NCBI RefSeq assembly: GCF_004011805.1
Contig: NZ_ML137196.1
Location: 369,024-433,023 of the forward strand
DNA: 64,000 nt
Origin: Piscinibacter defluvii
GTDB taxonomy: Bacteria > Pseudomonadota > Gammaproteobacteria > Burkholderiales > Burkholderiaceae_C
Direction of reading: 5' to 3'
Shown here: positions 13,921 through 47,855 of the stretch, one piece after another
How the letters are laid out: every line of letters begins with the position of its first letter
Numbering within the stretch: the stretch's first letter is position 1
Position numbers and translations under genes: made by a program
Notes under the pieces: model-generated
What the model was told of the DNA's origin: nothing
Seen by the model: the letters and a program-made list of their open reading frames with translations, nothing else
Databases searched by the model: none

Positions 13921-13933
13921 GGTGGGGGCGCGG

Positions 13934-20612: not shown

Positions 20613-20616
20613 CGCG

Positions 20617-24255: not shown

Positions 24256-24375
24256 GCGGCACCGGCACCGTAGTCCCTTGGCCGCACGCGCGTATCCCTA
24301 GTTCGGCAGGTGTCGGAGCGGCCCCGGCAGGCGCGCCGATCTAGCATGCGGCGGCACACAACCCCGGGAGCCCCC

Positions 24376-30315: not shown

Positions 30316-30346
30316 GATTCGTTCTCCTTTCGTGCGGCCGCCGGGC

Positions 30347-31399
30347 TCAGGCCACGTGCAGCAACCCGCGCTTGATGCGCTGGCCCACCCGCTCGATGCG
30401 CCGCCAGCCGCTGTTGTCGTTCAAGGCGATCCAGCGCCGCTCCTCGGCGCGGTAGAACCAGTCCTTGTCCTGTTGGTAGTAGACCTGGGCTTCGGTGGAT
30501 TCCCAGATGTTGACGATCTCGTTGCTGTGCGCCCGCAGCTCGTCGAAGTCGGTCGTCGCCTTCTGTCCCATCTCGCTGTAGCAGGCGTTGAGCTGCAGCA
30601 GCAGGGCGTTGACGTCGGCCGGCATGCGCTGGGCATGCAGGCCGATCTTCACCGCCTCGTCGAGCAGGATCGGGTAGTTGTGCGAAGGGTACTTGCCGTT
30701 CAGCGCGGAGGCGATGGCCTCGGCCTGGGCCGCATCGTCGATGTGGTAGGCCAGCAGTTCGCGGCACAGCATCAACGAGAGCGATTCGGCCCGGTCCACC
30801 GCGCCGATCACCAGCGGGTGCACGTACTGGAACAGCGACTTGTAGGCGTTCTCCGGCACGGCGCTGCCCTGGCCCTGCTGGTCGCGCCAGAGCTTGATGA
30901 CGCGCTGCAGCTCGTCGAGGCTGACGCTGACGCGGTCGTTGTCGCGGTCCACCGGCGAGAGGGCGTGGTTCAGCGAGGTGTCCACCGCGGTGAGGTAGGC
31001 CGTGGGGCCCATCTCGATGCCGTCGGCGCCCAGCGCGACCATGGTCGCGGCCGAGGCGCACTCCAGCGGCACCAGCGCCACCAGGCGGCGGCAGTGCTGC
31101 CGCAGCAGGTTCACCAGGCGCAGCGACACCTGGCCGCTGCCGCCATCGCTCTTCAGGAACAGGTGGATCGTGTCGTGCCGGCCGAGCCGCTCGAGCACGT
31201 GGTACAGCGCGATCACGTCGGAGTGGCACACCGCGCCGCGCGGCCCGTTCCAGTAGGCCACCAGCGGGCCGCCCAGGCGCGCCGAGAGCGCGCGGATCAG
31301 CGCCTGCGTGCGCGTGAAGAGCACCGGCGGCTGCTTGACCTTGACCTCGATGGCCGGGAGTTGTTCGTTCTTCATGATCTTGTCCTTGGTGAGTGACAC
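30347..31399 (-). CDS. SDH-family ClpP-fold serine peptidase (serine dehydrogenase proteinase family)
   Basis: TIHLFLKSDGGSGQVSLRLVNLL...ALVPLECASAATMVALGADGIEMGPTAYL is the ClpP/crotonase-fold protease signature of the SDH (S49-related) family. About 350 aa. Confidence 0.65.
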   Translation of the reverse strand: MSLTKDKIMKNEQLPAIEVKVKQPPVLFTRTQALIRALSARLGGPLVAYWNGPRGAVCHSDVIALYHVLERLGRHDTIHLFLKSDGGSGQVSLRLVNLLRQHCRRLVALVPLECASAATMVALGADGIEMGPTAYLTAVDTSLNHALSPVDRDNDRVSVSLDELQRVIKLWRDQQGQGSAVPENAYKSLFQYVHPLVIGAVDRAESLSLMLCRELLAYHIDDAAQAEAIASALNGKYPSHNYPILLDEAVKIGLHAQRMPADVNALLLQLNACYSEMGQKATTDFDELRAHSNEIVNIWESTEAQVYYQQDKDWFYRAEERRWIALNDNSGWRRIERVGQRIKRGLLHVA

Positions 31400-31432
31400 C
31401 CCGCCCGCAACTCGTGCGGGCGGGGCGGGCGC

Positions 31433-32569
31433 TCACCGGAGCTTCACGAGACCGTTGAGCACCTGGTCCAGACCTCCGAACACGGAGATCTTGTCGATGC
31501 GCTCGGCCACGCGTTCCAGCGTCTCGAGCTCCTTGAGCCGCAGGGCGACGGGGTTGTCCTCCATCACCTTGGCGGTGTTCAGCAGCGAGCGGGTGGCTGC
31601 CGTCTCCTCGCGCCGGCGGATCACGTTGGCCTCGGCCGACTTGCCGGCCTCGACCACCCGGGCGAGGATGGTCTTCATCTCGCCCGGCAGCACGATGTCC
31701 TTCACGCCCACGCCGTCGAGCTGCAGACCGTAGTCCGCCAGCTTCGCCTTGACCTGGGCAGTGACGACCTCGTCGATCACCGTCTTGTTCTCGAGCAGCT
31801 CGTCGAGCGAGCGCGTGCCCACGGCGGCGCGCAGGCCGAACTGCAGCTCGCGGTACAGGTGGTCCGCGGGCTTGGCGAGTTCCTTGTGCGCCTTCAGCAC
31901 ATCGGTGTAGCGCCAGGTGGCCGAGAGGTTCAGCCGCAGGGCCACCTTGTCGCGGGTCAGGATTTCCTGGCCCGCCACTTCGACGGTCTGCAGCCGCAGG
32001 TCGACCAGCTCCACCGCCACGTTGCGGTTGAACTTCCAGAACGCGTAGGAACCGGGGCCGAGCAGACGCTCGACCTTGCCGTCGATCCACAGGATGCCGG
32101 CGGCGTGTTCGCTCACCTGCACCTGCAGCACGTAGTTCAGGCCGGTCATGCCGCGCAGGCGCATCGGAGACTGCACCAGCCGCGCCGCGAGCGCGGGCGC
32201 CAGCTCGGCGCTGTCGGCGATGTCCACCACGTCCACCTGCACGTCGACCAGGCCCTTCCAGTACAGGCGCCGGGTGCCCGGCGCGAGCAGCTCGACCAGC
32301 GTGCCGTTCTCGCTGCGCAGGCCGACCTGGTGTTCCGCGAGCTCGACGCGCACGAACTCGGCGGCCACCACCTCGGGCTCCTTGGCCATGAGGTAGTCCG
32401 CCAGGGCGTGCGTGAACACCGCCTGCTCCAGCGCGAAGAGTTCCACGCGCAGGGTGTCGAGGCCGTCGAACAGCCAGTGCGTGCCGGGCTGCAGCACGCG
32501 CTCGAAATCGCCATTGCGCAGCAGCAGGCCGCGCTCGTTCTTCTTCACGGTGACGCGCTTGAACTTCAT
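31433..32569 (-). CDS. SPFH/band-7 domain protein
   Basis: MKFKRVTVKKNERGLLLRNGDFERVLQPGTHW... followed by a long coiled-coil-like C-terminal region, typical of stomatin/flotillin-like SPFH proteins. Confidence 0.75.
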   Translation of the reverse strand: MKFKRVTVKKNERGLLLRNGDFERVLQPGTHWLFDGLDTLRVELFALEQAVFTHALADYLMAKEPEVVAAEFVRVELAEHQVGLRSENGTLVELLAPGTRRLYWKGLVDVQVDVVDIADSAELAPALAARLVQSPMRLRGMTGLNYVLQVQVSEHAAGILWIDGKVERLLGPGSYAFWKFNRNVAVELVDLRLQTVEVAGQEILTRDKVALRLNLSATWRYTDVLKAHKELAKPADHLYRELQFGLRAAVGTRSLDELLENKTVIDEVVTAQVKAKLADYGLQLDGVGVKDIVLPGEMKTILARVVEAGKSAEANVIRRREETAATRSLLNTAKVMEDNPVALRLKELETLERVAERIDKISVFGGLDQVLNGLVKLR

Positions 32570-32835
32570 GTGACTTCTCCTTGTTCTCGTGCGTGCATTG
32601 AATGGGTGCCGTTACAGCGACGGCCGCGGACGCCGGGTGCCCGGGCCCGGGTCCACGCTGCGCGTCGCTCGCCTCCTCCCTGAAGGCGAGCTCGGCTGGG
32701 CGTGGATGCGGAGCCCCGCGTGCCCGGCGCACGGGCAGCTGCCGCTGATGCACGCCCGGGCGATCGTTCGGAGGGCCCTTGGTGCACGTCCGGCGGTGGT
32801 CTTTCGACCGCTTGTTTCTGGATTGGCAGTCCAGG

Positions 32836-32910
32836 TGTTGGAGCGGGAGTCGAACCCGCGACAGGCGCCCGATCGGGCGCTGCTCTACCACTGAGCTAAC
32901 CAACGGTGGC
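32836..32910 (-). ncRNA. tRNA-like element with canonical D- and T-arms but a palindromic 6-nt anticodon loop (possible pseudo-tRNA or regulatory tRNA-like RNA)
   Basis: Minus strand reads ...GTTGGTTAGCTCAGTGGTAGAGCA-GCGCC-CGATCG-GGCGC-CTGTC-GCGGGTTCGACTCCCGC-TCCAACACC. The D-arm (TAGCTCAGTGGTAGAGC) and T-arm (GCGGG-TTCGACT-CCCGC, identical to the neighbouring tRNA-Asp) are canonical. The anticodon arm is a perfect 16-nt palindrome with a 6-nt loop lacking U33. The acceptor stem has two mismatches. Confidence 0.5.
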
Positions 32911-33275
32911 ATCCGTCGCTTCCGGCAGGCGGCATGGGCGGCACCGACGGACGGATCCGGGTGCCGCACACCGGCGGGGTTCACGAACCCCGGGCCTGTG
33001 AGCCTTTGCCTTTGGCGATGGATTCTTGGGCGCCCGAACGTCGTCAGTTCAGGCGCGATCCGATGCGCGACGACTTCGGCAGCCGCGCAGCGTGGCCAGC
33101 GGACCGCGGCCTTCGGCCCACGCCACCGCGCCCGTGGCCACGTGAACCGCTGCCTGCTCGAGCGAGATCCACGCCTGCGGCGTGCCCTGGATGTCGAGTT
33201 GCAGCACGTGGCTGTGGTGGTGTTGGTGGTGCATGGTCGGCCTCCCTTCCGGGCCGTGACGTTGGGGATGGGATC

Positions 33276-33351
33276 TGGCACGTCCGGATGGATTCGAACC
33301 ACCGGCCTCGACCTTCGGAGGGTCGCGCTCTGGCCGCTGAGCTACGGACGT
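33276..33351 (-). tRNA. tRNA-Arg (anticodon CCG)
   Basis: Manual cloverleaf: ACGTCCG-TA-GCTC-AGCGGCCA-GAGC-G-CGACC-CTCCGAA-GGTCG-AGGCC-GGTGG-TTCGAAT-CCATC-CGGACGT-G-CCA. All stems are Watson-Crick and the CCA is encoded. Confidence 0.85.
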
Positions 33352-33483
33352 ATGCAGGGCCGGCCCCGGTGAGGCCACATCCCGCAGCGCTTCCATCGAG
33401 CTGCGGCCACACCCAGGCACATGCCGGCCGTTGGTCCCGGTGGCAGGTGTCGAACCGTCATCGGCTCTTCCGCCCGCCCGATC

Positions 33484-33559
33484 TGGCGCCTCGTGCGGGA
33501 GTCGAACCCGCGGCTTCCGGCGCGACAGGCCGGCACTCTGGCCACTGAGTCAACGAGGC
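33484..33559 (-). tRNA. tRNA-Asp (anticodon GTC)
   Basis: Manual cloverleaf: GCCTCGT-TG-ACTC-AGTGGCCA-GAGT-G-CCGGC-CTGTCGC-GCCGG-AAGCC-GCGGG-TTCGACT-CCCGC-ACGAGGC-G-CCA. All stems pair. Confidence 0.85.
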
Positions 33560-34052
33560 ATTCATTCCATCCGGTGACGGGTTCCGGCGCCGCCCAATCG
33601 TTGCGGCCGATTTCCACCCCTGAAGCGTGAGCTCGACAGGGGCTTCCTGAACTGGTGTCGCGTGCGGGACGGCTCGGGCTGAGCCCGGCCTTCGGCCCTG
33701 GACGAACACGACGAAACGCAAGAGTCCACTTCGGCTGTGCCCAAACGCGAGCATCCCGTCGGATGTGGTGTCTCGCTGCACGTGGTCTGGCCAGGGACCG
33801 CGCACATCCCGGGCCACCAACACCATGTCGCGTGGCCTCGGAGTGCATGGACACACCCGAAGTGGGTCTGCGCAGACGCCAGTGCGTCGCAGTGGACGAA
33901 CCGGTGCCTGGCAGACGGTGCAAGACGTTTCCCCGGCCAGTACCGAGGTCGTCTTGCGGCAGGTTGTTAAAGAGCATCCACCGATGCCGGTGGTGGCGAT
34001 CCCTCGGACCGCCGGGCCGGTGCCAACGCGCCGGCCGGTTGAAGTGACAACG

Positions 34053-36859: not shown

Positions 36860-37516
36860 CTAGGCCTGGATGAGCAGGACGCTCTTCTCGCGCTGGATTT
36901 CCAGGGGCGTGTACGTCTCCACGCCGACGATGCGCGCTCGGCCCTGGCGGCAGAAGGCCTCGTAGTCCGCGATCGTCCGCCAGCGGCAATGGGGCGAGTG
37001 GCTCGGCTCGGAGGTCAGGTTCTCGACGATGTACAGATGGCCGCCCGGCTGCGTGTGCGCCAGCAGCGCCGCGAGCGAGCGCTGCCACTCCTCGTCGTCG
37101 ACCACGTGGTACAGCACATCGATGCACAGGACGGCAGCGAACGCCTCGCCGAGGTCCAGCGTCGCCAGCGGCGACTGCACGTAGGCGACCCGGTCGCGCC
37201 CGTAGGCGTTCTCGATCGCGTCCTGCGACACGTCGCAGCCGACGCAGTCGAAACCGGTCTGCGCCAGCAGCATGGTCAGGTAGCCGCGCCCGCATCCGGC
37301 ATCGAGCACACGCGCCCCGCGCGACACGCCGAGGCGGCCGAGCAGGTAAGCGAGCAGGAGCGCCTTCTGGTGGATCTGCCTCTCGTTGGCTTCGCCCGTC
37401 AGCGAGACATTGCCGACGCCCCGGAAATCGGCACCGAACTTCCGGTGCCGCGCCTGCCAATAGGCGTGGGCGTCGAATGCCGGCGGCTCGGAGGCACCGC
37501 GCTTCGTCCCGCTCAC
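36860..37516 (-). CDS. class I SAM-dependent methyltransferase
   Basis: VLDAGCGRGYLTMLLAQTGFDCVGCDVS is Rossmann motif I (glycine-rich), followed by motif II/III spacing. 218 aa. Confidence 0.8.
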   Translation of the reverse strand: MSGTKRGASEPPAFDAHAYWQARHRKFGADFRGVGNVSLTGEANERQIHQKALLLAYLLGRLGVSRGARVLDAGCGRGYLTMLLAQTGFDCVGCDVSQDAIENAYGRDRVAYVQSPLATLDLGEAFAAVLCIDVLYHVVDDEEWQRSLAALLAHTQPGGHLYIVENLTSEPSHSPHCRWRTIADYEAFCRQGRARIVGVETYTPLEIQREKSVLLIQA

Positions 37517-37668
37517 CGGTGGTTACCGACTTTGGCCATGGATCGCAGGATAACCGAGCGCCCTCGCGGTGCCGCGCAGCGAAGTGCGCCGGCGCGCAGT
37601 ACGCAAGACGGCGACCCGGCAAACCAGTGCTGCAGCCAGGTCGGCCCCGTCCAGGTTGATCGGAGCGC

Positions 37669-38870
37669 TCATTCCTGGGCCAGGCCTTGGCGGAATGCCG
37701 TGGCGTGCCGCTTGATCCCGCCGGAGACCGCTGCCCACAGCTTGGCTGGGAAACTGTCAGGCAATTCGCTCTCGACCGTCTCGAGCACGCGCTCCGTGGC
37801 CTCGATCATTCCGGACATGCGTGCCCAGATCTCATCCCCCGCCGAGTTTGCCAGCCGACGCCAGTGCTGCGGCTGGATGTCGCGCAGCCGATGGTGCATG
37901 TTGCCGGCCTTCACGCCCATCGCCAGCCTGGCGCGCGGGTAGGGCACGAGATTCGGTCCGTCGCCGATGATGGGCCAGGCCGACAGCACGTCGTGGAGCG
38001 GGGTCAGTTGAAACCGGCCGCCCCGGCGGTGCTGGATCGAGAAGTTCTTGGCGTGCCCGTCGGTCGCCGCGAGCAACCAGAACACGAACTGCGCCAGGAC
38101 GAAGATGGCACGGTCTTCGTCGGCGCTCTCGCTGCTGGCCAGCACCGCCAGGCAGTCCTGCATCGACGGTCCCCCGTCGCTCTGGTACTTGCGCTCCGGT
38201 CCGATGCCGAGCGCCTGGCAGAAGTCCTCCTGGGGCAGCCGCGCGATCCAGGCACCCTCGGACGGCTTGAAGCGTGCCTTCGTTTCCGCGCCGCTGTCGA
38301 TGCCGACCCAGCGGCGATCGAAGCGGGTGACGACGAGCACCTTGGTCTCGCCGAAGCGGGCCATCTCCGTCTCCGCGACCGGTAGCCCGAAGGCGCGCAG
38401 GATGCGGCTGCAGAGCCACTCGTTCTCCACCGAGGTGCTCATATCGGCCCGCATGTTGCCGACCAGGCCCAGCGGCAGCTTCAGGATGTGGGTGGTCGGT
38501 GTCGCGCCGTGCGGGCGATGCCAGCGGCGCCCGATGCGCAGCAGCGCCGTCTTCTCCTGCGCGCCGGCGATCGACAGCCGCAGCTCGTCCTCCGCGCCCA
38601 GGCCGAGCGGGGCGTCGGACGTGACCGCGGCGAGCGTGCGCCCGACCTGCCCCTCGTCGAGCGGCTCCGCCTCGACGCGGTTCCAGCCGTCGGGGCGATC
38701 GCCGGGCGGCAGCAGTTGCACCGCCCCCACGCAGTCTCGCCCGATGGCTGCGAGCAGGTCGAAAGCCTCGGTCGAGCGTGACCTCGCAACGTTCGTGGAA
38801 CGTGCGCTGTCGCTGGACGTGCTGCTTGGCGCAACGGGCCACTCCGAACAAGCCAGCGTCGCGAGAGACG
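37669..38870 (-). pseudogene. hipA-family kinase pseudogene (N-terminal region frameshifted or diverged)
   Basis: The ORF 37669..38730 starts at MGAVQLLPPGD..., which aligns with the middle of the full-length HipA at 40195..41550 (...DCVGAVQLLPPGAEPGGWNRVDAQPL...SIAGAQEKTALLR...DGHAKNFS). The in-frame upstream sequence continues as EAFDLLAAIGRDCV without an ATG. The further-upstream HipA-like residues (RTFHER) are in a different frame. Confidence 0.7.
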
Positions 38871-39013
38871 CAGCAAGTCACGTGAACGTCGTGCTGGGCA
38901 TGGACCACCTGAAGCACCGCGCCGCGGCGTTGGCTCAACACACGCTGAAGCACTGATTGCCAGGGCGGATCGGCGCGCTCGCGCCGATCCGCCCACACCA
39001 CCAATGACCCGCA

Positions 39014-39760
39014 ATGCAAATGTCTGACACACATATCCAACACGCGCGTCCTGTCGAAGTTGCAGCCGTGATGTACGCGTTCGTCTACTACTTCATCGTC
39101 AGCACCGAGCTCCACCTGCTCGGTGATGAGCACGGAGGCCGCGACTGCGTCGATACGCTCGACACGGAAGACACGCAGGGCCTCCGACAAGCCCTGGCCT
39201 ACGCTGAACTGGTCGTCGCCGACTTCGGTCGAGCGCCGACGACCCTGCCCGAACTCATCGAGCGAATTCGGGTAGTGGCCGACAATCTCCGCAGCGACGC
39301 ATCCATTCATGGACGGGCCAATCTAGCCCTGCAAGACGCGTTCAGTCACGCGTTCGACAGAGCCGGCGAACTCATGCGAGCCGGACCGGGGCAACGCAAG
39401 CCACCGCAGCAGACTGAAGGCCCAGACTCCGACCGCCCGCTGAGAGCGCTGCGCCGCTGGTCGCGCTACTACCTGGACAGGTTCGAGCAGTTGGTCGACT
39501 TCCTGGCTGGCCCTGATGGTTCGCTGGACGAAGACGCCGTCCGCGCTGTGTTCGCTTGCACCGACATCGGCATGGGCATGCTGTATCACTTGGGCGGACA
39601 CCTTCTGCACGCCGAAACGAACCCCTTCGGACTGGTGCGAGAACTGAATGACCAGTTGCGGAGCTCCGCCGTAGAGGACGGTGGCCATCACGTTGAACGG
39701 ACTCTGACCTGCGTCTACGATTGCGCGCTGGTCGCACTGGATGAAGGTGTAGGCGCGTAG
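39014..39760 (+). CDS. hypothetical protein (248 aa)
   Basis: This ORF lies in an AT-richer stretch and has plausible composition (MQMSDTHIQHARPVEVAAVMYAFVYYFIVSTELHLLGDEHG...). No recognisable domain. Confidence 0.35.
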   Translation: MQMSDTHIQHARPVEVAAVMYAFVYYFIVSTELHLLGDEHGGRDCVDTLDTEDTQGLRQALAYAELVVADFGRAPTTLPELIERIRVVADNLRSDASIHGRANLALQDAFSHAFDRAGELMRAGPGQRKPPQQTEGPDSDRPLRALRRWSRYYLDRFEQLVDFLAGPDGSLDEDAVRAVFACTDIGMGMLYHLGGHLLHAETNPFGLVRELNDQLRSSAVEDGGHHVERTLTCVYDCALVALDEGVGA

Positions 39761-40194
39761 CCCTTCGAAGCGTCCCTCACGTGGCCCCGCGGCAGCTGTC
39801 GCGGGGCCACGCTTGCCTTGGTGGCCCCGAACCGATAACCATGCCCCGTCGCAGAGTTGACGCACGCGCATCCGATAGCATCGGCGCCCCCCCCGCCCGG
39901 AAACCTTGGCCATCTGAGCGTCACCCTGCGCTGCAGCGACGGGGGCAGCACCTATGGGCTGCCTAGGGCGTCGATCAGGCTAACGGCAGCTTCCGCGACC
40001 TTTGACTTGGGCGCTATCGTCTCTGTAGGAGAGTCGCAGCCACTTGAACAGCCCGCGAGGCAGCTGCTTTCACTCCTGATGCCGCCGCCTCGTCGACTCA
40101 TTCAACTGTTGCAGGCACTGGAAGCCAACTCTGCAGTCGTCTTGGTCGAATGAGACGCCCGTAGGCTGTGCATCTCTGCGATGCGACGTCTTTC

Positions 40195-41550
40195 CTACAG
40201 GGACTCTGCGCCACGCAGGAACAACTGCGCGTGCCGCTTCACTCCCGTTGAGATGGAGGTCCAGACGCGGTGCGGGAAGCCCTGGGGCAACTGGCCCTCG
40301 ACCTTGCTCAATACGTCCTCGGCACCGTCAGCCATGGCCATCATGCGCTGCCAGACCTTGTCTCCGCATCCGTCAGCCAAGCGATTCCAATGACGCGGCT
40401 GGATGTCCTTGATCCTGTAGTGCGGGTTCTCGCCGCGGACGGCTATGGCCAGCTTGGCCCGCGGATACGCAATCTGATTCGGCCCGTCCCCAATGATCGG
40501 CCAAGCGGACAGTACGTCATACAGCGGCGTCAGGCTGAAGTGGCCCCCTCGTCGGTGCCGGAGAGAGAAGTTCTTGGCGTGCCCATCAGTGGCGGCCATC
40601 AACCAGAACGCGAACTGCGCCAGCGCGAACGTGGCCCGGTCCTCCTCCGCGTGCTCACTTGCAGCGAGAACACGCAGGCAATCTTGCGCCGAGGGACCGC
40701 CGTCGGATTGGTACTTGCGATCCGGCGCGATCCCGAGTGCTTGGCAGAAGTCCTCCTGAGGTAGACGCGCAATCCAGGCTCCTTCCGGAGGCTTGAAGCG
40801 CGCCTTCGTCTCGGCGCCAGCGGCAACGCCCTGCCATCGCCGGTCGAATCGCGTGACGACGAGGGCCTTCGCATCACCGAAGCTCGCCATCTCCGTCGTC
40901 GCCATCTCGAACCCGAGTCCAGACATGATCCGGGCGCACAGCCACTCGTTCTCGACCGAGTCGGTCATGTCGACCCTCATGTTGCCGACCAAGCCCAGGG
41001 GGAGCTTGAGGATGTGGGTCGTGGGCGTCGCGCCGTGAGGGCGATACCACTTGCCCCCCATCCGCAACAGTGCGGTCTTCTCCTGCGCGCCGGCAATGGA
41101 GATGCGGAAGTCGTGGTCGTCACCCTGGCCGAGCGGGCTCTCCGACGTGACCACCCGAAGGAGGTTCTCGACGTCGCGGTCCTTCAGCGGTTGGGCGTCG
41201 ACGCGGTTCCAGCCTCCGGGCTCAGCTCCCGGTGGCAGCAGCTGCACTGCGCCAACACAATCGCGTCCGATGGCTGTGAGCAGATCGAACGCCTCGTCCG
41301 AGCGGGCATGGAAGCGCCGCCGCAATCGGCGGCGAATGTCGGCGCTATCGGGCAGGAGGTTCTCGAAGTAGTGTGTGACCGTGTCTCCGCGGTGTTCGAG
41401 GTCGGCGGTGAAGGGCAATGACAGCGACAGCGCGCGCCCTTCGTCCGAATGCGCCCAGGCCTCGTGGTAGCGCAGCACAGGCGTGCCGGTGCGCAGTGTG
41501 GTCCACACGCCCACGGGCATCCCGTTCATCCAGATGTGGAGTTCGGCCAC
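40195..41550 (-). CDS. hipA: HipA-family serine/threonine kinase toxin (full length)
   Basis: MAELHIWMNGMPVGVWTT... N-terminal domain, then SIAGAQEKTALLR and ATDGHAKNFSL catalytic motifs. 451 aa. It lies immediately downstream of a hipB-like gene. Confidence 0.85.
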   Translation of the reverse strand: MAELHIWMNGMPVGVWTTLRTGTPVLRYHEAWAHSDEGRALSLSLPFTADLEHRGDTVTHYFENLLPDSADIRRRLRRRFHARSDEAFDLLTAIGRDCVGAVQLLPPGAEPGGWNRVDAQPLKDRDVENLLRVVTSESPLGQGDDHDFRISIAGAQEKTALLRMGGKWYRPHGATPTTHILKLPLGLVGNMRVDMTDSVENEWLCARIMSGLGFEMATTEMASFGDAKALVVTRFDRRWQGVAAGAETKARFKPPEGAWIARLPQEDFCQALGIAPDRKYQSDGGPSAQDCLRVLAASEHAEEDRATFALAQFAFWLMAATDGHAKNFSLRHRRGGHFSLTPLYDVLSAWPIIGDGPNQIAYPRAKLAIAVRGENPHYRIKDIQPRHWNRLADGCGDKVWQRMMAMADGAEDVLSKVEGQLPQGFPHRVWTSISTGVKRHAQLFLRGAESL

Positions 41551-41559
41551 GGCTCGCCC

Positions 41560-41838
41560 CTACCAGGGCTCTTCCGTCGGGCGACGCTTCCCGGCCGCGG
41601 CGCCGGAGACGGCGGCCTCGGCGCCCGTGGGGCGCAGCGCCATCTGCACACCCAACGCGCTCAGGATGCTGAGGAACTGCTCCAAGCTGATCGCTGTCGG
41701 ATCGCGCTCGATGCGTGCGATCCGCGTCTGCCCGACGCCCAACATGGCGCCGAGCTGCATCTGGCTCAGGCCTCGTGCCTTGCGCAGTGCACGAAGCTGG
41801 CTGGAGAGCTGGCCAGGGGTTTGGATGAGGTATTCCAT
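41560..41838 (-). CDS. hipB: HipB-like XRE-family HTH antitoxin or transcriptional regulator
   Basis: LRALRKARGLSQMQLGAMLGVGQTRIARIERDP is an XRE helix-turn-helix. 92 aa. The gene is 9 nt upstream of hipA. Confidence 0.8.
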   Translation of the reverse strand: MEYLIQTPGQLSSQLRALRKARGLSQMQLGAMLGVGQTRIARIERDPTAISLEQFLSILSALGVQMALRPTGAEAAVSGAAAGKRRPTEEPW

Positions 41839-42070
41839 ACCGGAACACTTTATGCCTTAGGAAGCATTTGTGCAATAAATGCCTCTGAAAGCATTATCGC
41901 GATTCATGCCCTTAAGGGCATACCGCTGCGCTCAGGCCCAGCCACCGAGGCGACCACGCGACGATCCGTGAACAAGTTTGCGCTGGCGCCGCAGTTCACC
42001 GCACAGGCAGGCTCACGCCGGCGCGCCAAACGAGAATTCGCCCAACCCGCCATTGCCCGGAACACAACGC

Positions 42071-42790
42071 ATGTTGCGAACGCTAGAGCGCCGCCTCCTG
42101 AGGCTTCTGCTCCGCCGAGCGGAGCGAAGGCAGGACGTGGCCACGGAGGCCGAGCGACTGGATCTGATGAGCCGCCGAGACTTGCCGACCGGCCTCATCA
42201 ACCGCCTGGCCTTCATGGAGGAACTCCAGCGAGTCCGGACTGCAGGCACGTCCGGAACGCTGATGATCATCGACATCGACCTGTTCAAGCTGATCAACGA
42301 CAGGCATGGACACGCGGTCGGTGACGAAGTCCTGCGCGCACTCGCAAACCGAATCAGGACGCCACTGCCATCCAGCAGCTTGGTAGCGCGGCTTGGAGGC
42401 GACGAGTTCGTCGCCTTCGTGCCGATGCCTCTCGAGCGAGGCGCCGAGCTGGCGGACCGATGCGTCGAAGCAGCACGTGTGCCGATCGCACTGGCAGACG
42501 GGCAGGAGCTGCGGGTCACGATCACCGTGGGTGTCGCGTCGCTTGCTGCACAAGCGAGCATCGAGAAGACGCTGTCCGCGGCCGACCAGGCCCTGTATGC
42601 GGCCAAGGAGGCGGGGCGCGACCGCATCCAAGTCTTTGACGACGACACCGCAGGCATCGTCGGAGCGCGCCGCTCGCTGGCGGCCGCGGTGGCCACACCC
42701 TTCAGGAGCGCAACCAGCAACTGCTCAAGCGTGTCGAGCTCGATGCGCTGACAGGCCTGCGTAACCGTCACGCGCTGGACCAGATCCTCG
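42071..42790 (+). pseudogene. decayed diguanylate cyclase gene (one GGDEF domain plus the start of a second, frameshifted and truncated)
   Basis: MLRTLERRLL... RLGGDEFVAF is a GGDEF domain. After about 42650 the frame degenerates. A different frame encodes LQERNQQLLKRVELDALTGLRNRHALDQILD, the canonical beginning of a second GGDEF domain. That domain is cut off where the convergent methyltransferase-PLD ORF ends. Confidence 0.55.
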
Positions 42791-43720
42791 ACACGACCTG
42801 CGGCGGGCCCGATGGACAGCGAAGATGTAGGCCTTGAGGTGAAAGCTGCTGCCCTGCGTCACGAAGACACGCACGTCGGCGCCCTGCTCGCGCAGCAGCA
42901 AGAGCAGACGCAGTGCTTCAGGGTCGGTGATGTCCAGATAGTCGCTGGTCAGGACACGGACACGGCGCTTCGCCTCCGGTGCGAGGACCGCCTGCAGATC
43001 AGGCAGCAGTAGCCGCAGCCCCGTGGTCTTTATGAAGGCGACGGCCAGGTCGACTTCCGTAGCGCTTGCGATCGCCGCCGAGAGGTGTGGCAGGAAGTGG
43101 TCGGCTTCGCCGGTGACGAGTCGCCGGCCGCTTGGCGGCGCCTTCATGACGAGCGCGTTCGTCCATGCCTCGTCTCGCTCGGGGCGCTGGTCTCGCGTCA
43201 GCCAGACTTCTATGCCGAGCACCTCGGCGAACGGCCTGAACCAGGTCCGAATCGTCTCCTCGTCGGCGTCGGTGAAGCGCCGGCCGTTGTGGAGTCGCTC
43301 GCCACGGCCGTGCTTGAGGCTCAAGTAGAGCGTGCCGCCCGGCGCCAGCGCGGCCCAAAGCCGCGACAGCGCGTCTTGCATCTCGGAGAGCGGGACATGG
43401 AGTAGGCTGGCGCAGCACCAGATCCCGTCATAGGCGGCGGTCTCATCGACATCCTCGAATCGGCGAACGCCGACTTCAAAGCCGCAATGCTCGGTGGCCA
43501 AGGAGGCAAGTTCGGGCGTGGCGTCGAACGCGGTGACCGAGAAGCCCAATGCGGCGAACGCCTTGGCGTCTCGTCCCGAGCCGCAGCCTGCGTCGAGGAT
43601 TCGGGCACCGGCTGGGATGTAGGCGAGAAACCGCTGCCGAATCGCCGCCATGTCGACGGCAACTGTGGTGCGAAAGAACTCGGCAGCGAACTGTCGGTAG
43701 TACTCGACGCTGTCGCTCAT
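42725..43720 (-). CDS. SAM-dependent methyltransferase fused to a PLD-like (HxK) nuclease-type domain; probably 3-prime truncated
   Basis: N-terminus has MSDSVEYYRQF...ILDAGCGSGRDA (methyltransferase motif I). The C-terminal part has EVDLAVAFIKTTGLRLL...RVLTSDYLDITDPEALRLL...GADVRVF...FHLKAYIF (PLD/HKD-like HxK motif). The protein ends shortly afterwards in low-complexity read-through that overlaps the decayed GGDEF gene. Confidence 0.55.
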   Translation of the reverse strand: MSDSVEYYRQFAAEFFRTTVAVDMAAIRQRFLAYIPAGARILDAGCGSGRDAKAFAALGFSVTAFDATPELASLATEHCGFEVGVRRFEDVDETAAYDGIWCCASLLHVPLSEMQDALSRLWAALAPGGTLYLSLKHGRGERLHNGRRFTDADEETIRTWFRPFAEVLGIEVWLTRDQRPERDEAWTNALVMKAPPSGRRLVTGEADHFLPHLSAAIASATEVDLAVAFIKTTGLRLLLPDLQAVLAPEAKRRVRVLTSDYLDITDPEALRLLLLLREQGADVRVFVTQGSSFHLKAYIFAVHRARRRSCRGSGPARDGYAGLSAHRARHA

Positions 43721-43737
43721 CCCCTAGCCGCATTGAT

Positions 43738-44337
43738 GTCTTATTGCGGCGAGCCTACCCACCTCTCGAAGGTCAATTCAAGGACTTCCAGGCCTTCTTC
43801 CAGGACTGGCTGGACATTCCTCGCGACCTACCCATCGCGAAGGTGGTCAATGCGCTGACGAGTCTCAACACAATTGCCGACCGCGCCGAGCGAGAGAAAG
43901 AGGCGCTCGCCATCTACAAGCGCGCGGAGAAGGTACTGCGGCCCGCCTTCGGCAAGCCAGTGCCGCGACCGAGTTGGATGTCCGTTTTCGAGAACGAGGC
44001 CGTTTTCGTGGACCACCATGGCCGGCTCGTGGAAACGAGCGAATCCCTCTACGCAAACGACGCGCCAGCCATCGCCGAGCTCTTCCAGGATGAGGAAGAT
44101 CTGTCCTTCCTTGCAGTGCCGAGAGAGGACGTGCCGCGGCTCAGCGATTCGGTCACGCATCGTTTCAACTTCGAGGCTCTCGGCTTTGCCGTCACCCCAC
44201 AGCCTTCAGCCTATGGCGCGAAGGTATTGGCCCTGGCCGATAAGTTGACGGAACTTGCTGTAGCTTGTTTATTGCGTTCACAGGCCACGGCTTATACGAT
44301 GTGCCATGGTCGCTGCCTTCCCTGTCCGCTTCCCTGA
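43738..44337 (+). pseudogene. gene remnant without start codon (hypothetical protein fragment)
   Basis: AT-richer stretch with protein-like translation ...EALAIYKRAEKVLRPAFGKPVPRPSWMSVFENEAVFVDHHGRLVETSESLYANDAPAIAELFQDEEDLSF.... No ATG follows the preceding stop, and the stretch runs into hipB. Confidence 0.3.
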
Positions 44338-44677
44338 TCAACTCCGCCAGCATCTGCGGGCGCTGAGAAAACGGCATGGCCTGACTCAGGCCCAACTCGG
44401 CGCACTCATCGGTGTCAGCCAGGCGCGAATCGCGGAGATCGAAGCGAACCCGGGCCTCGTCAACTTCGAGCAGTTGATGAAGCTGCTGTCCGTGCTGGGG
44501 GTCTCGCTGACCCTGCAGGAGGAAGCGGTCGCGCCGGTCGCCGCCCGCGCCCCTGCGGTCAAGGCCTCGAAGCCGAAAGCCCCCAAGCCACAGCCCAAGC
44601 CATCAAGCAGACCGCCTGAGGCTGAGGCCGAATCCCGTCGTACCCTCGTGGCCCGCCCCAAGAAGGGCTCGTGGTGA
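44306..44677 (+). CDS. hipB: HipB-like XRE-family HTH protein with a Lys/Pro-rich tail
   Basis: LRALRKRHGLTQAQLGALIGVSQARIAEIEANP is an XRE HTH. The stop overlaps the downstream hipA start by 7 nt. Confidence 0.75.
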   Translation: MVAAFPVRFPDQLRQHLRALRKRHGLTQAQLGALIGVSQARIAEIEANPGLVNFEQLMKLLSVLGVSLTLQEEAVAPVAARAPAVKASKPKAPKPQPKPSSRPPEAEAESRRTLVARPKKGSW

Positions 44678-45993
44678 CCCAGTCGCTCAACGCCTGGATG
44701 AACGGTGAGCGGGTCGGCACCTGGATCGTCGACCGGAACTCGCACGCCTTCCGCTACGAGCCATCCTGGCTGGAGTCGCCACGCCGGCGGTCGCTTTCGC
44801 TCTCCCTACTCATCAGCGGATCGCTGGAGATCCAGGGTCAGCAGGTCCGCAACTACTTCGACAACCTGCTGCCGGACAACGAACGGATCCGCTCGCGCCT
44901 GCGCCGGCGCTTCGGCCTGCGCTCGGGCGAGATCTTCGACCTGCTGGAGGCCATCGGCCGGGACTGCGTGGGCGCTGTGCAGCTCCTGCCCGAGGGCATC
45001 ACCCCGGAGGGTTGGGATCGGATCGAGTGCGATCCGCTGACCGAGGCGCAAATCGTCGACCTGCTGCAGGCGGTGCCGTCGGACACCGACCCCGGGTCGA
45101 TCCACGACGACGACCTGTTCCGCATCTCCATCGCCGGCGCGCAGGAGAAAACCGCACTCACCCGGTGGAAGGGCAAGTGGTGCCGGCCGCATGGCGCCAC
45201 GCCCACCACCCACATCATCAAGCTGCCGCTGGGTCTCATCGGTGGCTCGAAGCGGGTAGATGCGTCGGACTCGGTCCAGAACGAATGGCTGTGCGCGCAG
45301 ATCGTCGCGGAGCTCGGGCTGCCGGTCGCCTCCACTTCGATGGAGACCTTCGGCGAACAGACCGTGCTGGTCGTCGAGCGGTTCGACCGGGAGTGGATGG
45401 ACAAGGGGAAGTGGATCGCACGCCTACCCCAGGAAGACTTCTGCCAGGCGCTCGGCGTTGGACCGGATCGGAAGTACGAGCAAGGCGGCGGCCCCGGCAT
45501 GCAGAAGTGCCTGCAATTACTGCAGGGCAGTGCAGACCGTGAGGACACGACCCTCTTCCTGCTCACGCAGCTGGCGTTCCTGCTGATGGCGGCCACCGAC
45601 GGCCATGCCAAGAACTTCTCGATCTATCTCGATCGCGGCGATGCCTATCGGATGACGCCGCTCTACGACGTCCTGTCGATGTGGCCCTACTACGGTGACG
45701 GCGCCAACCAGTTCAGGCCGCGCAAGGCGGGCCTGGCGATGGCCGTGCGCTCGAAGAACGCGCATTACCTGTTCCACACGATCCAGGCGCGCCACTGGCA
45801 GCAACTGGCGGCCAAACACGGAGGGGACACAGTGTGGGCCGCGATGATCGAGCTCGTCAGCAGCGTCGAGGTCGCGCTCGCGCGATTGGAGCAACGGCTG
45901 CCCAAGGACTTCCCGGCCCACACCTGGGAGAGCATCTCGACCGGCATGAGGAGCGAAGCAACGCGGTTCCTGAGGGAAGCTGGACTGCTCTAG
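44671..45993 (+). CDS. hipA: HipA-family serine/threonine kinase toxin (full length)
   Basis: MVTQSLNAWMNGERVGTW..., RISIAGAQEKTAL and ATDGHAKNFSIYL. 440 aa. Confidence 0.85.
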   Translation: MVTQSLNAWMNGERVGTWIVDRNSHAFRYEPSWLESPRRRSLSLSLLISGSLEIQGQQVRNYFDNLLPDNERIRSRLRRRFGLRSGEIFDLLEAIGRDCVGAVQLLPEGITPEGWDRIECDPLTEAQIVDLLQAVPSDTDPGSIHDDDLFRISIAGAQEKTALTRWKGKWCRPHGATPTTHIIKLPLGLIGGSKRVDASDSVQNEWLCAQIVAELGLPVASTSMETFGEQTVLVVERFDREWMDKGKWIARLPQEDFCQALGVGPDRKYEQGGGPGMQKCLQLLQGSADREDTTLFLLTQLAFLLMAATDGHAKNFSIYLDRGDAYRMTPLYDVLSMWPYYGDGANQFRPRKAGLAMAVRSKNAHYLFHTIQARHWQQLAAKHGGDTVWAAMIELVSSVEVALARLEQRLPKDFPAHTWESISTGMRSEATRFLREAGLL

Positions 45994-46205
45994 TGCGACA
46001 CCTGCGGTCGTTCTGCAGTCCAGTGGTCAACGTCGCTTCGCCGCCAGCCCACGGCACGCACCGACAGCTGGACCGGCGACGGAAACTGCCCGGCCGCCAG
46101 CAGCCGGTAGATCGTCGATCGACCGAGCCCGGTCAGGCGCATGACTTCCGGCAGGCGGAGGATCGCCGGTGGAGTGGCTTCCGTCGCGAATCGCAGGTGC
46201 TGCAT
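45990..46205 (-). CDS. alpA: AlpA-family phage/island transcriptional regulator (excisionase-like)
   Basis: MRLTGLGRSTIYRLLAAGQFPSPVQLSVRAVGWRRSDVDHW is the AlpA/MerR-like HTH signature. 71 aa. It lies directly downstream of the integrase on the same strand. Confidence 0.7.
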   Translation of the reverse strand: MQHLRFATEATPPAILRLPEVMRLTGLGRSTIYRLLAAGQFPSPVQLSVRAVGWRRSDVDHWTAERPQVSH

Positions 46206-46284
46206 GCGGCTTCCCTCGGTGATGTGCCTCGGGAAACTCTAGGCGCTCGCGGCACGTCATGAGCCGCAAGATTTCGACGCAGAT

Positions 46285-47571
46285 TCAGCGCTTCGCGCCT
46301 GCGCTGTCGGTCGGCGCCTTGCGAAGCTTGTCCAGATAGTCTGCCCAAGCCTGCATCATCTTCCGCCGCTGTTCGAGGAACTCGGTGCGGTTGTACGCGC
46401 GGCCGAGTGCGTCCTGCACCGAGTGTGCGAGCTGCGCCTCGATCACGTGGGGATCGAAACCGAGTCGCTCGTGCAGCATCGTCCGCGCCGTCGCGCGGAA
46501 GCCGTGGCCCGTCACCTCGTCGGTCGGGAAGCCCATCGCGCGCAGCGCGGCGTTGACGGTGTTGTCGCTCATCGGGCGGTCGTGATGGCGCTCGCCGCGG
46601 AACACCATAGGCCCGTTGCCGGTCAGCGGCTGCAGGTCGCGCAGCACCGCGACCGCCTGGCGCGAGAGCGGCACCAGGTGCGGCGCGCCGTGCAGCTTCT
46701 GACGCAGCTCCCGCTTCATCCGCATGGACGGCACGGTCCACAGCGCGTCGTCGAGATCGATCTCGGTCCACTCGGCGAAACGCAGTTCGCCGGGGCGCAA
46801 CAGCAGCATCGGCGCGAGCCGCAGCGCGGCGCGGACGACTGGCGTCGCCGCATAGTGGTCGATCGCGCGCAGCAGCTCGCCAAAGCGGGCCGGCTCGGTG
46901 ATCGCGGGGAAGTGCTTCGTCATCGGCCGCCGCAGGGCGCCCTTCAGATCGCGGGCCGGGTTGCTCGACGCCTTGCCCGTGGCCACCGCGTAGCGCAGCG
47001 CCTGGCTGCAGTCCTGCAGCGCGCGGTGCGCCGTCTCGACCACGCCGCGCGCCTCGATGCGACGGATCACCTCGAGCAGCGGGGGCGCCGTCAGCTCGGC
47101 CACCGGCACCTTGCCGATCCACGGGAAGACGTCGTTCTCGAAGCGGGCGATGATCTTGTCGCCGTAGCTTCTCGCCCAGCCGTCCTTGCGCACGGCATAC
47201 CACTCACGGGCGACTTCCTCGAACGAGCCGCGCGGCGGCAGCCCGTCGGCGACACGCTTCTTGTCTTCGTAGGCCTCGACCTGCGCCTGCCGCTCGGCCT
47301 TGCGCTGCTGGCTGGGGTCGAAGCCCTCCGCCAGAAGCCGCCGCGCCGCATCGGCCTTGCGGCGCGCGATGGCCAGCGTCGTGTCCGGGTAGTTGCCGAA
47401 AGACAGCATGTTGCGCCGGCCGGCGAAGCGATAGTCGAACCGCCACCCGTGCTCGCCAGGCTTCACGAAGAGCAACAGGACGAGCCCGTCGCCATCGCTG
47501 ATTCGCTTGCGCGGATCGCCCGGCTTGATGGCCTTGAGGAAGGTGTCCGAGGGGATGAGATAACGAGCCAT
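46285..47571 (-). CDS. int: tyrosine recombinase, P4-type (DUF4102 N-terminal domain) integrase
   Basis: N-terminus MARYLIPSDTFLKAIKPGDPRKRISDGDGLVLLLFVKPGEHGWRFDYRFAGRR...; C-terminal catalytic region ...HGFRATARTMLHE...LAHS... The start is 182 nt from the 3-prime end of tRNA-Phe. Confidence 0.9.
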   Translation of the reverse strand: MARYLIPSDTFLKAIKPGDPRKRISDGDGLVLLLFVKPGEHGWRFDYRFAGRRNMLSFGNYPDTTLAIARRKADAARRLLAEGFDPSQQRKAERQAQVEAYEDKKRVADGLPPRGSFEEVAREWYAVRKDGWARSYGDKIIARFENDVFPWIGKVPVAELTAPPLLEVIRRIEARGVVETAHRALQDCSQALRYAVATGKASSNPARDLKGALRRPMTKHFPAITEPARFGELLRAIDHYAATPVVRAALRLAPMLLLRPGELRFAEWTEIDLDDALWTVPSMRMKRELRQKLHGAPHLVPLSRQAVAVLRDLQPLTGNGPMVFRGERHHDRPMSDNTVNAALRAMGFPTDEVTGHGFRATARTMLHERLGFDPHVIEAQLAHSVQDALGRAYNRTEFLEQRRKMMQAWADYLDKLRKAPTDSAGAKR

Positions 47572-47674
47572 GGAGTAAACGCCCTGTTTTCGGCCCTACT
47601 CCAGGCCGCTACTCCAGAACGTACTCCTCGATCCCCGAGAACGTCAGGGTCGGCTTGCAACCGTGTGAGACAAC

Positions 47675-47712
47675 AAAAAAGCCCTAGAGCGTTGATTCTC
47701 TAGGGCTTTCTG
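47675..47712 (-). terminator. rho-independent terminator downstream of tRNA-Phe
   Basis: The plus strand reads aaaaaa-gccctagagcgttgattctctagggc-ttt. On the minus strand this is a GC-rich hairpin followed by TTTTTTG. Confidence 0.6.
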
Positions 47713-47752
47713 GACTTCGTGGGACGACTTGGAACGTCCCGAAATCGTCGTC

Positions 47753-47828
47753 TGGTGGCCAAGGGCGGAATCGAACCACCGACACGCGGATTTTCAATCC
47801 GCTGCTCTACCAACTGAGCTACTTGGCC
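47753..47828 (-). tRNA. tRNA-Phe (anticodon GAA)
   Basis: Manual cloverleaf: GGCCAAG-TA-GCTC-AGTTGGTA-GAGC-A-GCGGA-TTGAAAA-TCCGC-GTGTC-GGTGG-TTCGATT-CCGCC-CTTGGCC-A-CCA. All stems pair and the CCA is encoded. Confidence 0.9.
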
Positions 47829-47855
47829 GCGAGCCGGCGATTATAGCCGGGCTTC

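Follow-up and report, generated by a model that had tools for sequence, protein, structure and literature searches.

A putatively composite tRNA-Phe island with three diverged hipA genes in Piscinibacter defluvii

Gene content of the tRNA-Phe locus

A 64-kb stretch of Piscinibacter defluvii DNA (hereafter the window; all positions follow its numbering) carries, next to the 3' end of a tRNA-Phe gene, a 10-kb island with an integrase gene, two complete hipBA toxin-antitoxin (TA) modules and a truncated third hipA gene. Here we describe this island (37562-47752) and the corresponding sites of related genomes, which together suggest that it is a composite of an older integrase-hipBA unit and a strain-specific patchwork rather than one element. 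The tRNA genes were called with ARAGORN and Rfam, and protein domains were assigned by profile searches with Pfam, NCBIfam, PADLOC and PHROG.

The GC content of the island is 66.0%, compared with 72.7% in the remainder of the window, and the island is essentially the lowest-GC 10-kb stretch in the 64 kb. The GC content at third codon positions (GC3) is also lowered, with 0.71-0.91 in the island genes as against 0.91-0.96 in the flanking core genes. A first-pass annotation of the same DNA had described the 10 kb beside tRNA-Phe as more A/T-rich than its flanks, and had placed an island at 37600-47830. The GC and codon-position profiles that it proposed confirm the compositional deviation, and its extent agrees with the boundaries obtained here by comparison with relatives. 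The coordinates and peptides that it quoted were all correct, except for the end of the third hipA gene, and the other genes that it named (a hypothetical gene, a decayed GGDEF gene and a truncated methyltransferase-PLD gene) are all present. The features on the tRNA side of the island are as follows.

47753-47828, minus strand: tRNA-Phe(GAA), the putative integration target, with its 3' end toward the island (ARAGORN; Rfam, 72.1 bits)
44225-47752: Module A, int-alpA-hipA2-hipB2, 3.53 kb, 66.6% GC, the apparently older unit
47676-47711, minus strand: terminator-like hairpin, a 14-bp stem followed by a T-run, just past the tRNA gene in island DNA
46285-47571, minus strand: int, P4-like tyrosine integrase, 428 aa, apparently intact
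45990-46205, minus strand: alpA, AlpA-family excisionase/regulator, 71 aa (Phage_AlpA, 4.7e-20; PHROG annotation 'excisionase and transcriptional regulator')
44671-45993, plus strand: hipA2, HipA kinase toxin, 440 aa, intact (Couple_hipA and HipA_C)
44306-44677, plus strand: hipB2, helix-turn-helix (HTH) antitoxin, 123 aa (HTH_3, 7e-14), with a 7-nt overlap with the start of hipA2

An integrase and an AlpA regulator had been reported to adjoin the 3' end of tRNA-Phe. Indeed, int begins 181 nt from that end, and the domains of both proteins were recovered. For the integrase these are Arm-DNA-bind_3 (5e-22), Phage_int_M (4e-34) and Phage_integrase (2e-12), together with the PHROG integrase family phrog_1 (7e-64), and the catalytic motifs RPGEL, HGFRAT, AHS and RAYNR, which hold the residues of the R..HxxR..H..Y class, are legible in the translation. 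Exact-sequence look-ups returned no record for int or for P0145. The convergent alpA and hipA2 genes meet at stop codons that overlap in a CTAG palindrome (45990-45993), with no terminator between the genes.

Two intact hipBA modules and a truncated hipA gene

Three further hip genes, and a set of palindromes, lie on the opposite strand.

40195-41550, minus strand: hipA1, HipA kinase toxin, 451 aa, intact (Couple_hipA and HipA_C)
41560-41838, minus strand: hipB1, HTH antitoxin, 92 aa, with Trp at the end (HTH_3, 1.5e-13)
41852-41921, minus strand: three ATGC-N8-GCAT palindromes upstream of hipB1, found by an inverted-repeat search, candidate HipB1 operators
37669-38730/38780, minus strand: hipA3', truncated HipA gene (HipA_C only), with the ORF taken from a GTG at 38730 and homology up to 38780

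The two complete hipBA modules thus have the opposite orientations previously assigned to them, with Couple_hipA (N-subdomain-1) and HipA_C (the kinase core) on both HipA proteins and HTH_3 on both HipB proteins, and each hipB lies immediately upstream of its hipA partner. HipA1 and HipA2 each align collinearly with some 430 residues of E. coli HipA (E = 1.1e-86, with all kinase motifs aligned, and E = 1.9e-89 against the E. coli structures, respectively). The family motifs RISIAGAQEKT, ATDGHAKNFS and TPLYDVLS are found in both and align with the glycine-rich loop with its serine, the DGHAKN motif and the YD motif of the E. coli protein. A glycine-rich loop, a catalytic motif and an Mg-binding motif are the criteria by which Gerdes et al. 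define the HipA family (PMC8262856). Both HipB proteins match E. coli HipB structures (HipB1 at 4e-06) and, below the curated cut-offs, the NCBIfam couple_hipB and HipB models. HipB2 has a long Ala/Pro/Lys-rich tail, with about 50 low-complexity residues and Trp at the end. The two modules share 54% identity between HipA1 and HipA2 and about 50% between HipB1 and HipB2; the N-termini of the two HipA proteins had been quoted correctly before as a sign of clear divergence.

The ATGC-N8-GCAT motif also occurs three times upstream of the hipB gene of the related locus L004, and palindromes of a similar type are readable upstream of hipB in L086. It is plausible that the palindromes upstream of hipB1 are operators for HipB1. 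No convincing palindrome was found upstream of hipB2, of which the upstream 80 nt are conserved in two relatives (L081 and L002).

hipA3' lacks about 83 N-terminal codons, the promoter and hipB, and no hipB3 remnant was found in the window. Its homology to HipA1 residues 82-447 runs from 38781 to 37684 with 69% identity, and it is 94% identical to a full-length homologue (P0132) from residue 84 of the latter, with no indels in the remaining part. HipA1 and HipA3 share a 14-residue insertion that HipA2 does not have. The first two HipA motifs are kept, and TPLHD replaces TPLYD, a unique Y-to-H change in the Mg motif. The first-pass annotation had recorded a decayed third hipA at 37669-38870. 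The gene is real and damaged, but the damage is a 5' truncation rather than a frameshifted whole gene, and homology ends at 38780; position 38870 reflects only a stop-to-stop frame (38877). The ratio of nonsynonymous to synonymous substitution rates (dN/dS) of hipA3' is 0.22 against its counterpart in contig L085, a value that reflects mostly the history before truncation. Relaxed constraint on HipA3' was considered from 14 changes at otherwise invariant sites, compared with 2 for the other copies, and was set aside: with closer relatives included (P0132, P0138 and others) only 4 are unique. Most of these changes are clade-specific, while the Y-to-H change in the Mg motif remains suspicious. 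On its sequence, hipA3' is a pseudogene candidate.

The tRNA-Phe site in related genomes

Relatives were collected with an NtrX scan, one genome per species, which gave 80 loci in Sphaerotilaceae from genera that include Piscinibacter, Rhizobacter, Methylibium, Ideonella and Caldimonas. The order ntrY-ntrX-tRNA-Phe is conserved, and tRNA-Phe lies directly downstream of ntrX in all 80 loci. The DNA past tRNA-Phe, however, varies between nearly all of the species with enough flank, that is, at least 3 kb of sequence beyond the tRNA gene (n = 49). A HipA-like gene was found within 10 kb downstream of tRNA-Phe in 7 of these 49 species, compared with none of 67 upstream (Fisher p = 0.002). At least four Hip lineages occur at the site among the related loci. 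Modules of the hipBA1 type directly follow tRNA-Phe in L004 and in L086-L089, a further Hip lineage is found in L014 and L079, and a distant Hip kinase in L014, L020 and L061. In L014, an Ideonella metagenome-assembled genome, a tandem pair of hipBA-like operons (14816-18453) lies just past a 34-nt repeat of the tRNA-Phe 3' end, and the two operons belong to different Hip lineages (a 449-aa protein with a 142-aa partner and a 461-aa protein with a 97-aa partner). Because L014 has two hipBA operons, a cluster of several hip modules at tRNA-Phe is not unique to the window. Thus, of the earlier remark that three HipA genes within 8 kb are unusual, the count of three copies stands, but multiple hip modules occur at the site elsewhere and the HipA family is very common.

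The integrase shows a patchy distribution at the same site. Homologues 56-78% identical to it occupy the position after tRNA-Phe in L005, L017, L020, L026, L045, L057, L065, L079 and L080; overall it is present in about 10 species, whereas most species lack it, L081, L002 and L004 among them. In L026 and L079 the same int is followed by convergent hipAB genes. The flank with the terminator-like hairpin is homologous only in relatives with the same integrase (L026, for example), and L002, L004 and L081 have other hairpins.

Repeats of the tRNA-Phe 3' end (its last 34-47 nt) flank other islands at this tRNA in L001, L014, L028 and L032. A far direct repeat had been suggested as a marker of the island boundary, but no repeat of the type expected at the distal attachment site (attR), of 14 nt or longer, was found in the whole 64-kb window when the 45-nt 3' segment of tRNA-Phe was used in a BLAST search with word size 7 and in an ungapped scan. 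The best ungapped match to that segment was 24/45, and shuffled sequences gave maxima of 24-27. Two shorter matches, of 13 nt (16930-16942) and 11 nt (43493-43503), were considered as attachment repeats and judged to be chance. That no attachment repeat survives suggests that the island is probably immobile.

The closest relative, L081, is a near-conspecific contig of 25.9 kb that was found through a 97% identical homologue of the methyltransferase gene at 36860-37516, next to the island. Its core is 97% identical, and it lacks int, most of alpA and the 6.66-kb segment 37562-44224, so that the comparison with relatives proposed in the first-pass annotation bears out an island. That annotation would have taken the same content in all related genomes, with no compositional deviation, as the mark of a core region; the DNA after the tRNA gene differs across species and the composition deviates. 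A core stretch of unusual composition with an incidental integrase is contradicted by the variability of the hotspot and by L081, and we give it practically no weight: hipBA2 does keep one position in the window, in L081 and in L002, but the content after the tRNA differs in nearly all species examined, the relative with the 97% identical core is without 8 kb of the island, GC and GC3 are depressed, and the divergence of the hipBA2 alleles is out of step with that of their flanks.

Relationships of the three HipA copies

The three HipA copies lie within 8.3 kb and share 54-69% identity with one another, compared with 87-94% with proteins encoded elsewhere. HipA2 groups with the proteins of L002 (93-94%) and L026 (68%), HipA1 with P0025/P0027 (87%) and L004 (78%), and HipA3 with P0132 (94%) and P0138 (87.5%). 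Since each copy is closer to proteins of other genomes than to the other copies in the window, the three were in all likelihood acquired independently rather than duplicated. The first-pass annotation had favoured independent acquisition or diversification over a recent tandem duplication because the two intact proteins differ, and the relationships of all three copies support independent acquisition.

It could still be argued that an ancestral hipBA duplicated twice at the locus and that the copies then diverged, as three homologous genes stand within 8 kb, and HipA1 and HipA3, 69% identical, have in common the insertion that HipA2 lacks. However, HipA1 is nearer to the L004 protein (78%) than to HipA3 (68%), and for each copy much closer relatives are encoded in other genomes. 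Moreover, the blocks that hold the copies have sharp junctions and differ in their foreign relatives (see below), L081 has hipBA2 only, and pairwise synonymous divergence (dS) is about 1. We reject tandem duplication, which we regard as highly improbable.

Composite structure of the island

The boundaries of the island were drawn from L081. From window position 53941 to the last tRNA base (47753), L081 is 96.6% identical to the window, and 97.3% identical over ntrYX; from 37561 leftward the identity is 93%. These alignments place the boundaries at 37561/37562 and 47752/47753. Within the island, L081 6336-8167 corresponds to window 46056-44225 with 92.1% identity. Between the tRNA gene and the position equal to window 46056, L081 has only a 146-nt spacer. 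It has no int, and keeps the last ~21 codons of alpA as a stump, in the same CTAG stop overlap with hipA2 (6397-6402); the CTAG is also kept in L002 (~10925). Between hipB2 and the methyltransferase gene, where the window has 37562-44224, L081 carries an amino-acid permease gene. Because of the alpA stump, int-alpA-hipA2-hipB2 is taken as the older arrangement, from which L081 has lost int and most of alpA, and the arrangement of Module A is older than the split from L081.

The hipBA2 segment itself has a more complex history. L002 10925-12693 corresponds to window 45993-44225 with 89.5% identity, and L081 and L002 both keep hipBA2 without int. The hipBA2 block is 91.9% identical between the window and L081, 89.5% between the window and L002, and 89.9% between L081 and L002, compared with core identities of 97.3, 87.0 and 86.7% for the same pairs. 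Simple vertical inheritance, as the dS between the window and L002 had at first been read, was rejected, the alleles of the window and L081 being three times too divergent for their flanks. This discordance between alleles and cores indicates that the hipBA2 module was exchanged between genomes, either by recombination or by horizontal transfer.

Two further observations concern the surroundings of Module A in L081. The L081 spacer (6190-6335) shows homology to the DNA that flanks the tRNA gene, ahead of a hipBA1-type module, in L004 (10828-10925) and L086 (4439-4540). All three have a hairpin followed by the palindrome ATCCrTGTGCA...TGCACAyGG. The spacer is absent from the window and is therefore of no help in ordering events there, although it hints at further recombination between alleles of the hotspot. 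Also, the flanking methyltransferase gene 36860-37516 is confined to few close relatives, with 78-97% identity, beyond which identity falls to 50%, and its neighbourhoods in L082 and L084 are unrelated. The flank common to the window and L081 may itself be accessory DNA.

The other part of the island, Module B, consists of at least five blocks. Homology ends are sharp for three, which have 89-91% identical relatives elsewhere, in contigs found by homology searches with HipA1 and the hypothetical protein (L085, L090 and L091).

37562-44224: Module B, an apparently strain-specific patchwork, 6.66 kb, 65.6% GC
38780-37659: hipA3' block, corresponding to L085 755-1876, 88.9% identity
38776-39775 (or further): hyp248 block, corresponding to L091 3487-4486, 89.9% identity
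42819-40342: GGDEF'-hipBA1 block, corresponding to L090 610-3089, 91.3% identity
39014-39760, plus strand: hyp248, hypothetical gene with no Pfam, NCBIfam, PADLOC or PHROG match
42137-42819, plus strand: decayed GGDEF gene (GGDEF, 5.8e-35), with a frameshift near 42697 and without the 3' second GGDEF domain
42820-43720, minus strand: 5' part of an S-adenosylmethionine (SAM)-methyltransferase/PLD-nuclease gene, cut after the HKD motif
~43747-44128, plus strand: internal fragment of a Tiamat-like TmtA gene (PADLOC, E = 3.2e-11, profile positions 1057-1177 of 1655)

In L085, the counterpart of the hipA3' block is a full hipBA module, followed by NYN and Mrr_cat genes, and the homology to L091 begins exactly at the hipA3 breakpoint. 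The hyp248 protein is 100% identical to an annotated P. defluvii hypothetical protein. Its family is very rare, since just 7 of 1.84 billion protein cluster representatives fall in it, and the codon-position GC of the gene (0.73/0.43/0.71) is coding-like. The L090 homologue of the GGDEF gene encodes a 364-aa tandem GGDEF protein; its residues 1-187 align with the window copy in frame 2 and its residues 187-227 in frame 1, up to 42819. There the GGDEF and methyltransferase-PLD fragments meet tail to tail (junction 42819/42820), and past about residue 301 the open reading frame (ORF) of the latter is the antisense of the GGDEF block. Residues 20-157 of the methyltransferase-PLD product match Methyltransf_23/25, and residues 212-301 match positions 39-125 of 945 of the PADLOC mREase_IV profile, and also mad2. 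The PLD part thus corresponds to the N-terminus of SauUSI-like type IV restriction enzymes (PLD nuclease, helicase, DUF3427), in which a helicase and target-recognition domains come after the nuclease. The window gene, in which this part is joined to a SAM methyltransferase domain and which is cut at 42819/42820, does not qualify as such an enzyme. Likewise, the TmtA fragment, overlooked in the first-pass annotation and coding-like in its GC at the three codon positions (0.69/0.39/0.75), does not amount to a Tiamat system, which would call for a full-length TmtA (a profile of ~1,650 positions). The methyltransferase gene 36860-37516 (MT218) was considered as a paralogue of the methyltransferase-PLD domain and rejected: the two are 29% identical, both are generic class I methyltransferases, and MT218 lies in the flank shared with L081.

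These comparisons indicate that the island is composite, with an older Module A and a strain-specific Module B. Might one large island with all three hip loci and the defence genes instead have been acquired at once, then have decayed in place, with relatives losing different parts? The two modules have similar GC contents (65.6 and 66.6%), there is a single integrase with no internal attachment remnants (a second integrase, alpA or hipB remnant was not found in the window), and deletions do occur at the site, as the alpA stump of L081 illustrates. However, L081 has Module A but an unrelated permease gene in place of Module B, the closest relatives of the Module B blocks differ and stand in different contexts, GC3 ranges from 0.71 to 0.90 between blocks, and modules of the hipBA1 and hipBA2 types each occur alone beside the tRNA gene in sister species. 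A single acquisition is thus improbable.

Accumulation and retention of hip modules

We propose, with a probability of about 0.8, that the locus is a composite tRNA-Phe island, probably immobile now, in which hip modules were delivered repeatedly and TA pairs survived preferentially. From what is known of these families, the integrase would act on the 3' part of tRNA-Phe, recombining it with DNA of the element, while AlpA would assist or regulate excision. Translation would be arrested when a HipA kinase, not bound by its HipB, phosphorylates an aminoacyl-tRNA synthetase, and HipB1 would in addition repress the hipBA1 operon through the ATGC-N8-GCAT candidate operators. By analogy, HipA1 and HipA2 are thus expected to be toxic and to be neutralised by their HipB partners. 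The tRNA-Phe site would act as a regional hotspot that repeatedly receives hip-bearing DNA. Ordinary cargo would decay after arrival, but intact TA pairs would be hard to delete and kept by purifying selection, and hip modules would therefore accumulate. A hip module could be lost safely only by removal of hipB together with the 5' end of the toxin gene, which is the state of hipA3'.

The condition of the genes fits this proposal. The hipA genes of the intact pairs are under purifying selection (dN/dS of 0.06-0.09 for hipA2, against L081 and L002, and 0.19 for hipA1), while their non-TA neighbours are frameshifted or truncated. Within Module B, hipBA1 is intact, hipA3', GGDEF', methyltransferase-PLD' and TmtA' are broken, and there is one rare orphan ORF (hyp248). 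The stabilisation or addiction model for chromosomal TA modules has been reviewed (PMC2654758).

Several points count against the proposal. Some chromosomal TA systems fail to prevent deletions (PMC2654758), and the survival of hipBA could equally reflect a benefit to the host, such as defence or stress tolerance, rather than addiction. Site-specific integration of the window element is suggested by its position and by the relatives, without a direct repeat. The variable DNA may exceed 10 kb, because the far side of the hotspot is non-syntenic in all more distant species. Finally, the events that built Module B cannot be put in order, and the permease state of L081 could be the derived one.

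Somewhat different is the possibility that int-(alpA)-hipBA units are a separate family of integrative elements, minimal and self-stabilising, that target tRNA-Phe in Sphaerotilaceae, with hipBA as both sole cargo and persistence device. We consider this doubtful. If it were so, the hotspot would trap addictive Hip modules, so that different lineages of them pile up there, and a resident HipB, or the orphan core of hipA3', could cross-talk with incoming modules; the latter idea comes from the 64% identity of HipB1 to the cognate HipB of the HipA3 lineage, in the L085 module. More speculatively, read-through from hipBA2, antisense into alpA-int, could damp excision, since the convergent stop codons of hipA2 and alpA overlap and no terminator separates them.

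The alternative that survives best, though we still hold it to be unlikely, is that of an active defence island, in which hipBA would be retained for protection against phages by abortive infection and not by addiction. The neighbours of hipBA are remnants of defence genes (TmtA/Tiamat and the SauUSI-like PLD nuclease), HipA-type modules occur in L085 and L090, followed by NYN and Mrr_cat genes, and purifying selection on hipA2 is strong. Phage defence is also among the TA functions given by Gerdes et al. (PMC8262856). On the other hand, HipA1 and HipA2 matched no PADLOC defence model, and the recognisable defence genes at the locus are all dead. This alternative differs from accumulation through addiction only in the reason for retention, and sequence cannot separate the two.

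Relation to known systems

The closest point of reference is hipBA of E. coli K-12 (PDB 3DNV, 3TPD, 2WIU). HipA1 and HipA2 are full-length and collinear with its HipA and have the same Gly-rich loop with an adjacent Ser, DGHAKN and YD; in both modules an HTH-type HipB gene lies upstream, translationally coupled or closely spaced, and palindromes precede hipB1. E. coli HipB also ends in Trp, as do both HipB proteins of the window. The E. coli hip operator, TATCC-N8-GGATA, differs from the ATGC-N8-GCAT candidate operator of hipB1. Further differences are the low-complexity tail of HipB2 (~50 residues), the 14-residue insertion of HipA1 and HipA3, and the location in an integrase-linked island.

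The known HipA targets include GltX in E. coli and TrpS for HipA2 of Caulobacter (PMC8545095). Caulobacter crescentus likewise has three diverged HipA paralogues in one genome, and these differ in toxicity and targets (PMC8545095; PMC8262856); diverged HipA copies, then, need not be redundant. However, the Caulobacter paralogues are reported to belong to three separate chromosomal hipBA loci (PMC8262856), each with a HipB, whereas the window has one cluster at a tRNA hotspot, with one truncated orphan. In HipBST systems, in which HipS is the antitoxin, the HipT kinase naturally lacks N-subdomain-1 (PMC8262856, PMC10627512), and the core encoded by hipA3' lacks roughly the same part. In contrast to HipT, hipA3' arose by recent truncation from an ordinary HipA gene, with no hipS-like or hipB gene upstream, no evident promoter and Y-to-H in the Mg motif.

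Islands with P4-like or CP4-57-type integrases at tRNA genes include the pheV and pheU islands of Enterobacteria. The window island resembles them in its integrase (Arm-DNA-bind_3, central and catalytic domains), its position 3' of a tRNA gene, a nearby AlpA, low GC and variable presence. It differs in having no flanking repeat, in a conserved unit of 3.5 kb with a TA operon as sole cargo, and in its host, a Sphaerotilaceae species of 72% GC. Intact TA pairs inside decaying acquired DNA, and hipBA2 outliving int in L081 and L002, recall regions stabilised by TA modules, such as the TA cassettes of superintegrons and the maintenance modules of integrative and conjugative elements (PMC2654758); at the window locus, unlike in those regions, stabilisation is read only from the pattern of survivors.

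HipA proteins of the window type are abundant, with at least 7,599 homologues at E ≤ 1e-100 among 8,000 scored candidates, and the family occurs on 1,878 plasmid records, mostly of conjugative plasmids. Every component of the island belongs to a described family, and none points to a new mechanism. Caulobacter already provides a case of several hipBA modules in one genome, and integrase islands at tRNA-Phe are classical. Mildly new are the compact int-alpA-hipBA unit, the recurrence of this unit, with several Hip lineages, at a single tRNA-Phe hotspot throughout a family, and TA modules that outlast the rest. The locus thus offers a well-resolved natural example of TA accumulation, in which mobility and cargo genes decay and hipBA pairs persist. 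It should be useful for testing the stabilisation or addiction model, and the cross-neutralisation of diverged HipB and HipA proteins, in an environmental betaproteobacterium.

Other features of the window

Outside the island, 29098-33560 forms another block of lower GC (~68%). It holds rtcB (29098-30420), a ClpP/NfeD-like SDH protease gene, an SPFH/Band7 gene, a truncated HNH-like small ORF, tRNA-Arg(CCG) and tRNA-Asp(GTC). A tRNA-like gene at 32834-32905 (minus strand) has its anticodon arm replaced by the hairpin GCGCCCGATCGGGCGC; ARAGORN labels it 'tRNA-???', giving a 2-nt anticodon, and its score as tRNA in Rfam is 42.7 bits. In L081 the HNH gene of this region is intact and a PcfJ gene is present, and in L026 an rtcB orthologue (82% identical at the amino acid level) lies, inverted, 1.7 kb beyond the int-hipBA module. 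The block may be a tRNA-repair or mobile module, or an old far flank of the hotspot. Lastly, 9499-24297 contains four very large genes (products of 1,072-1,487 aa) with 75-82% GC, for which the sole Pfam match was DUF6603, in the product of 17163-20711.

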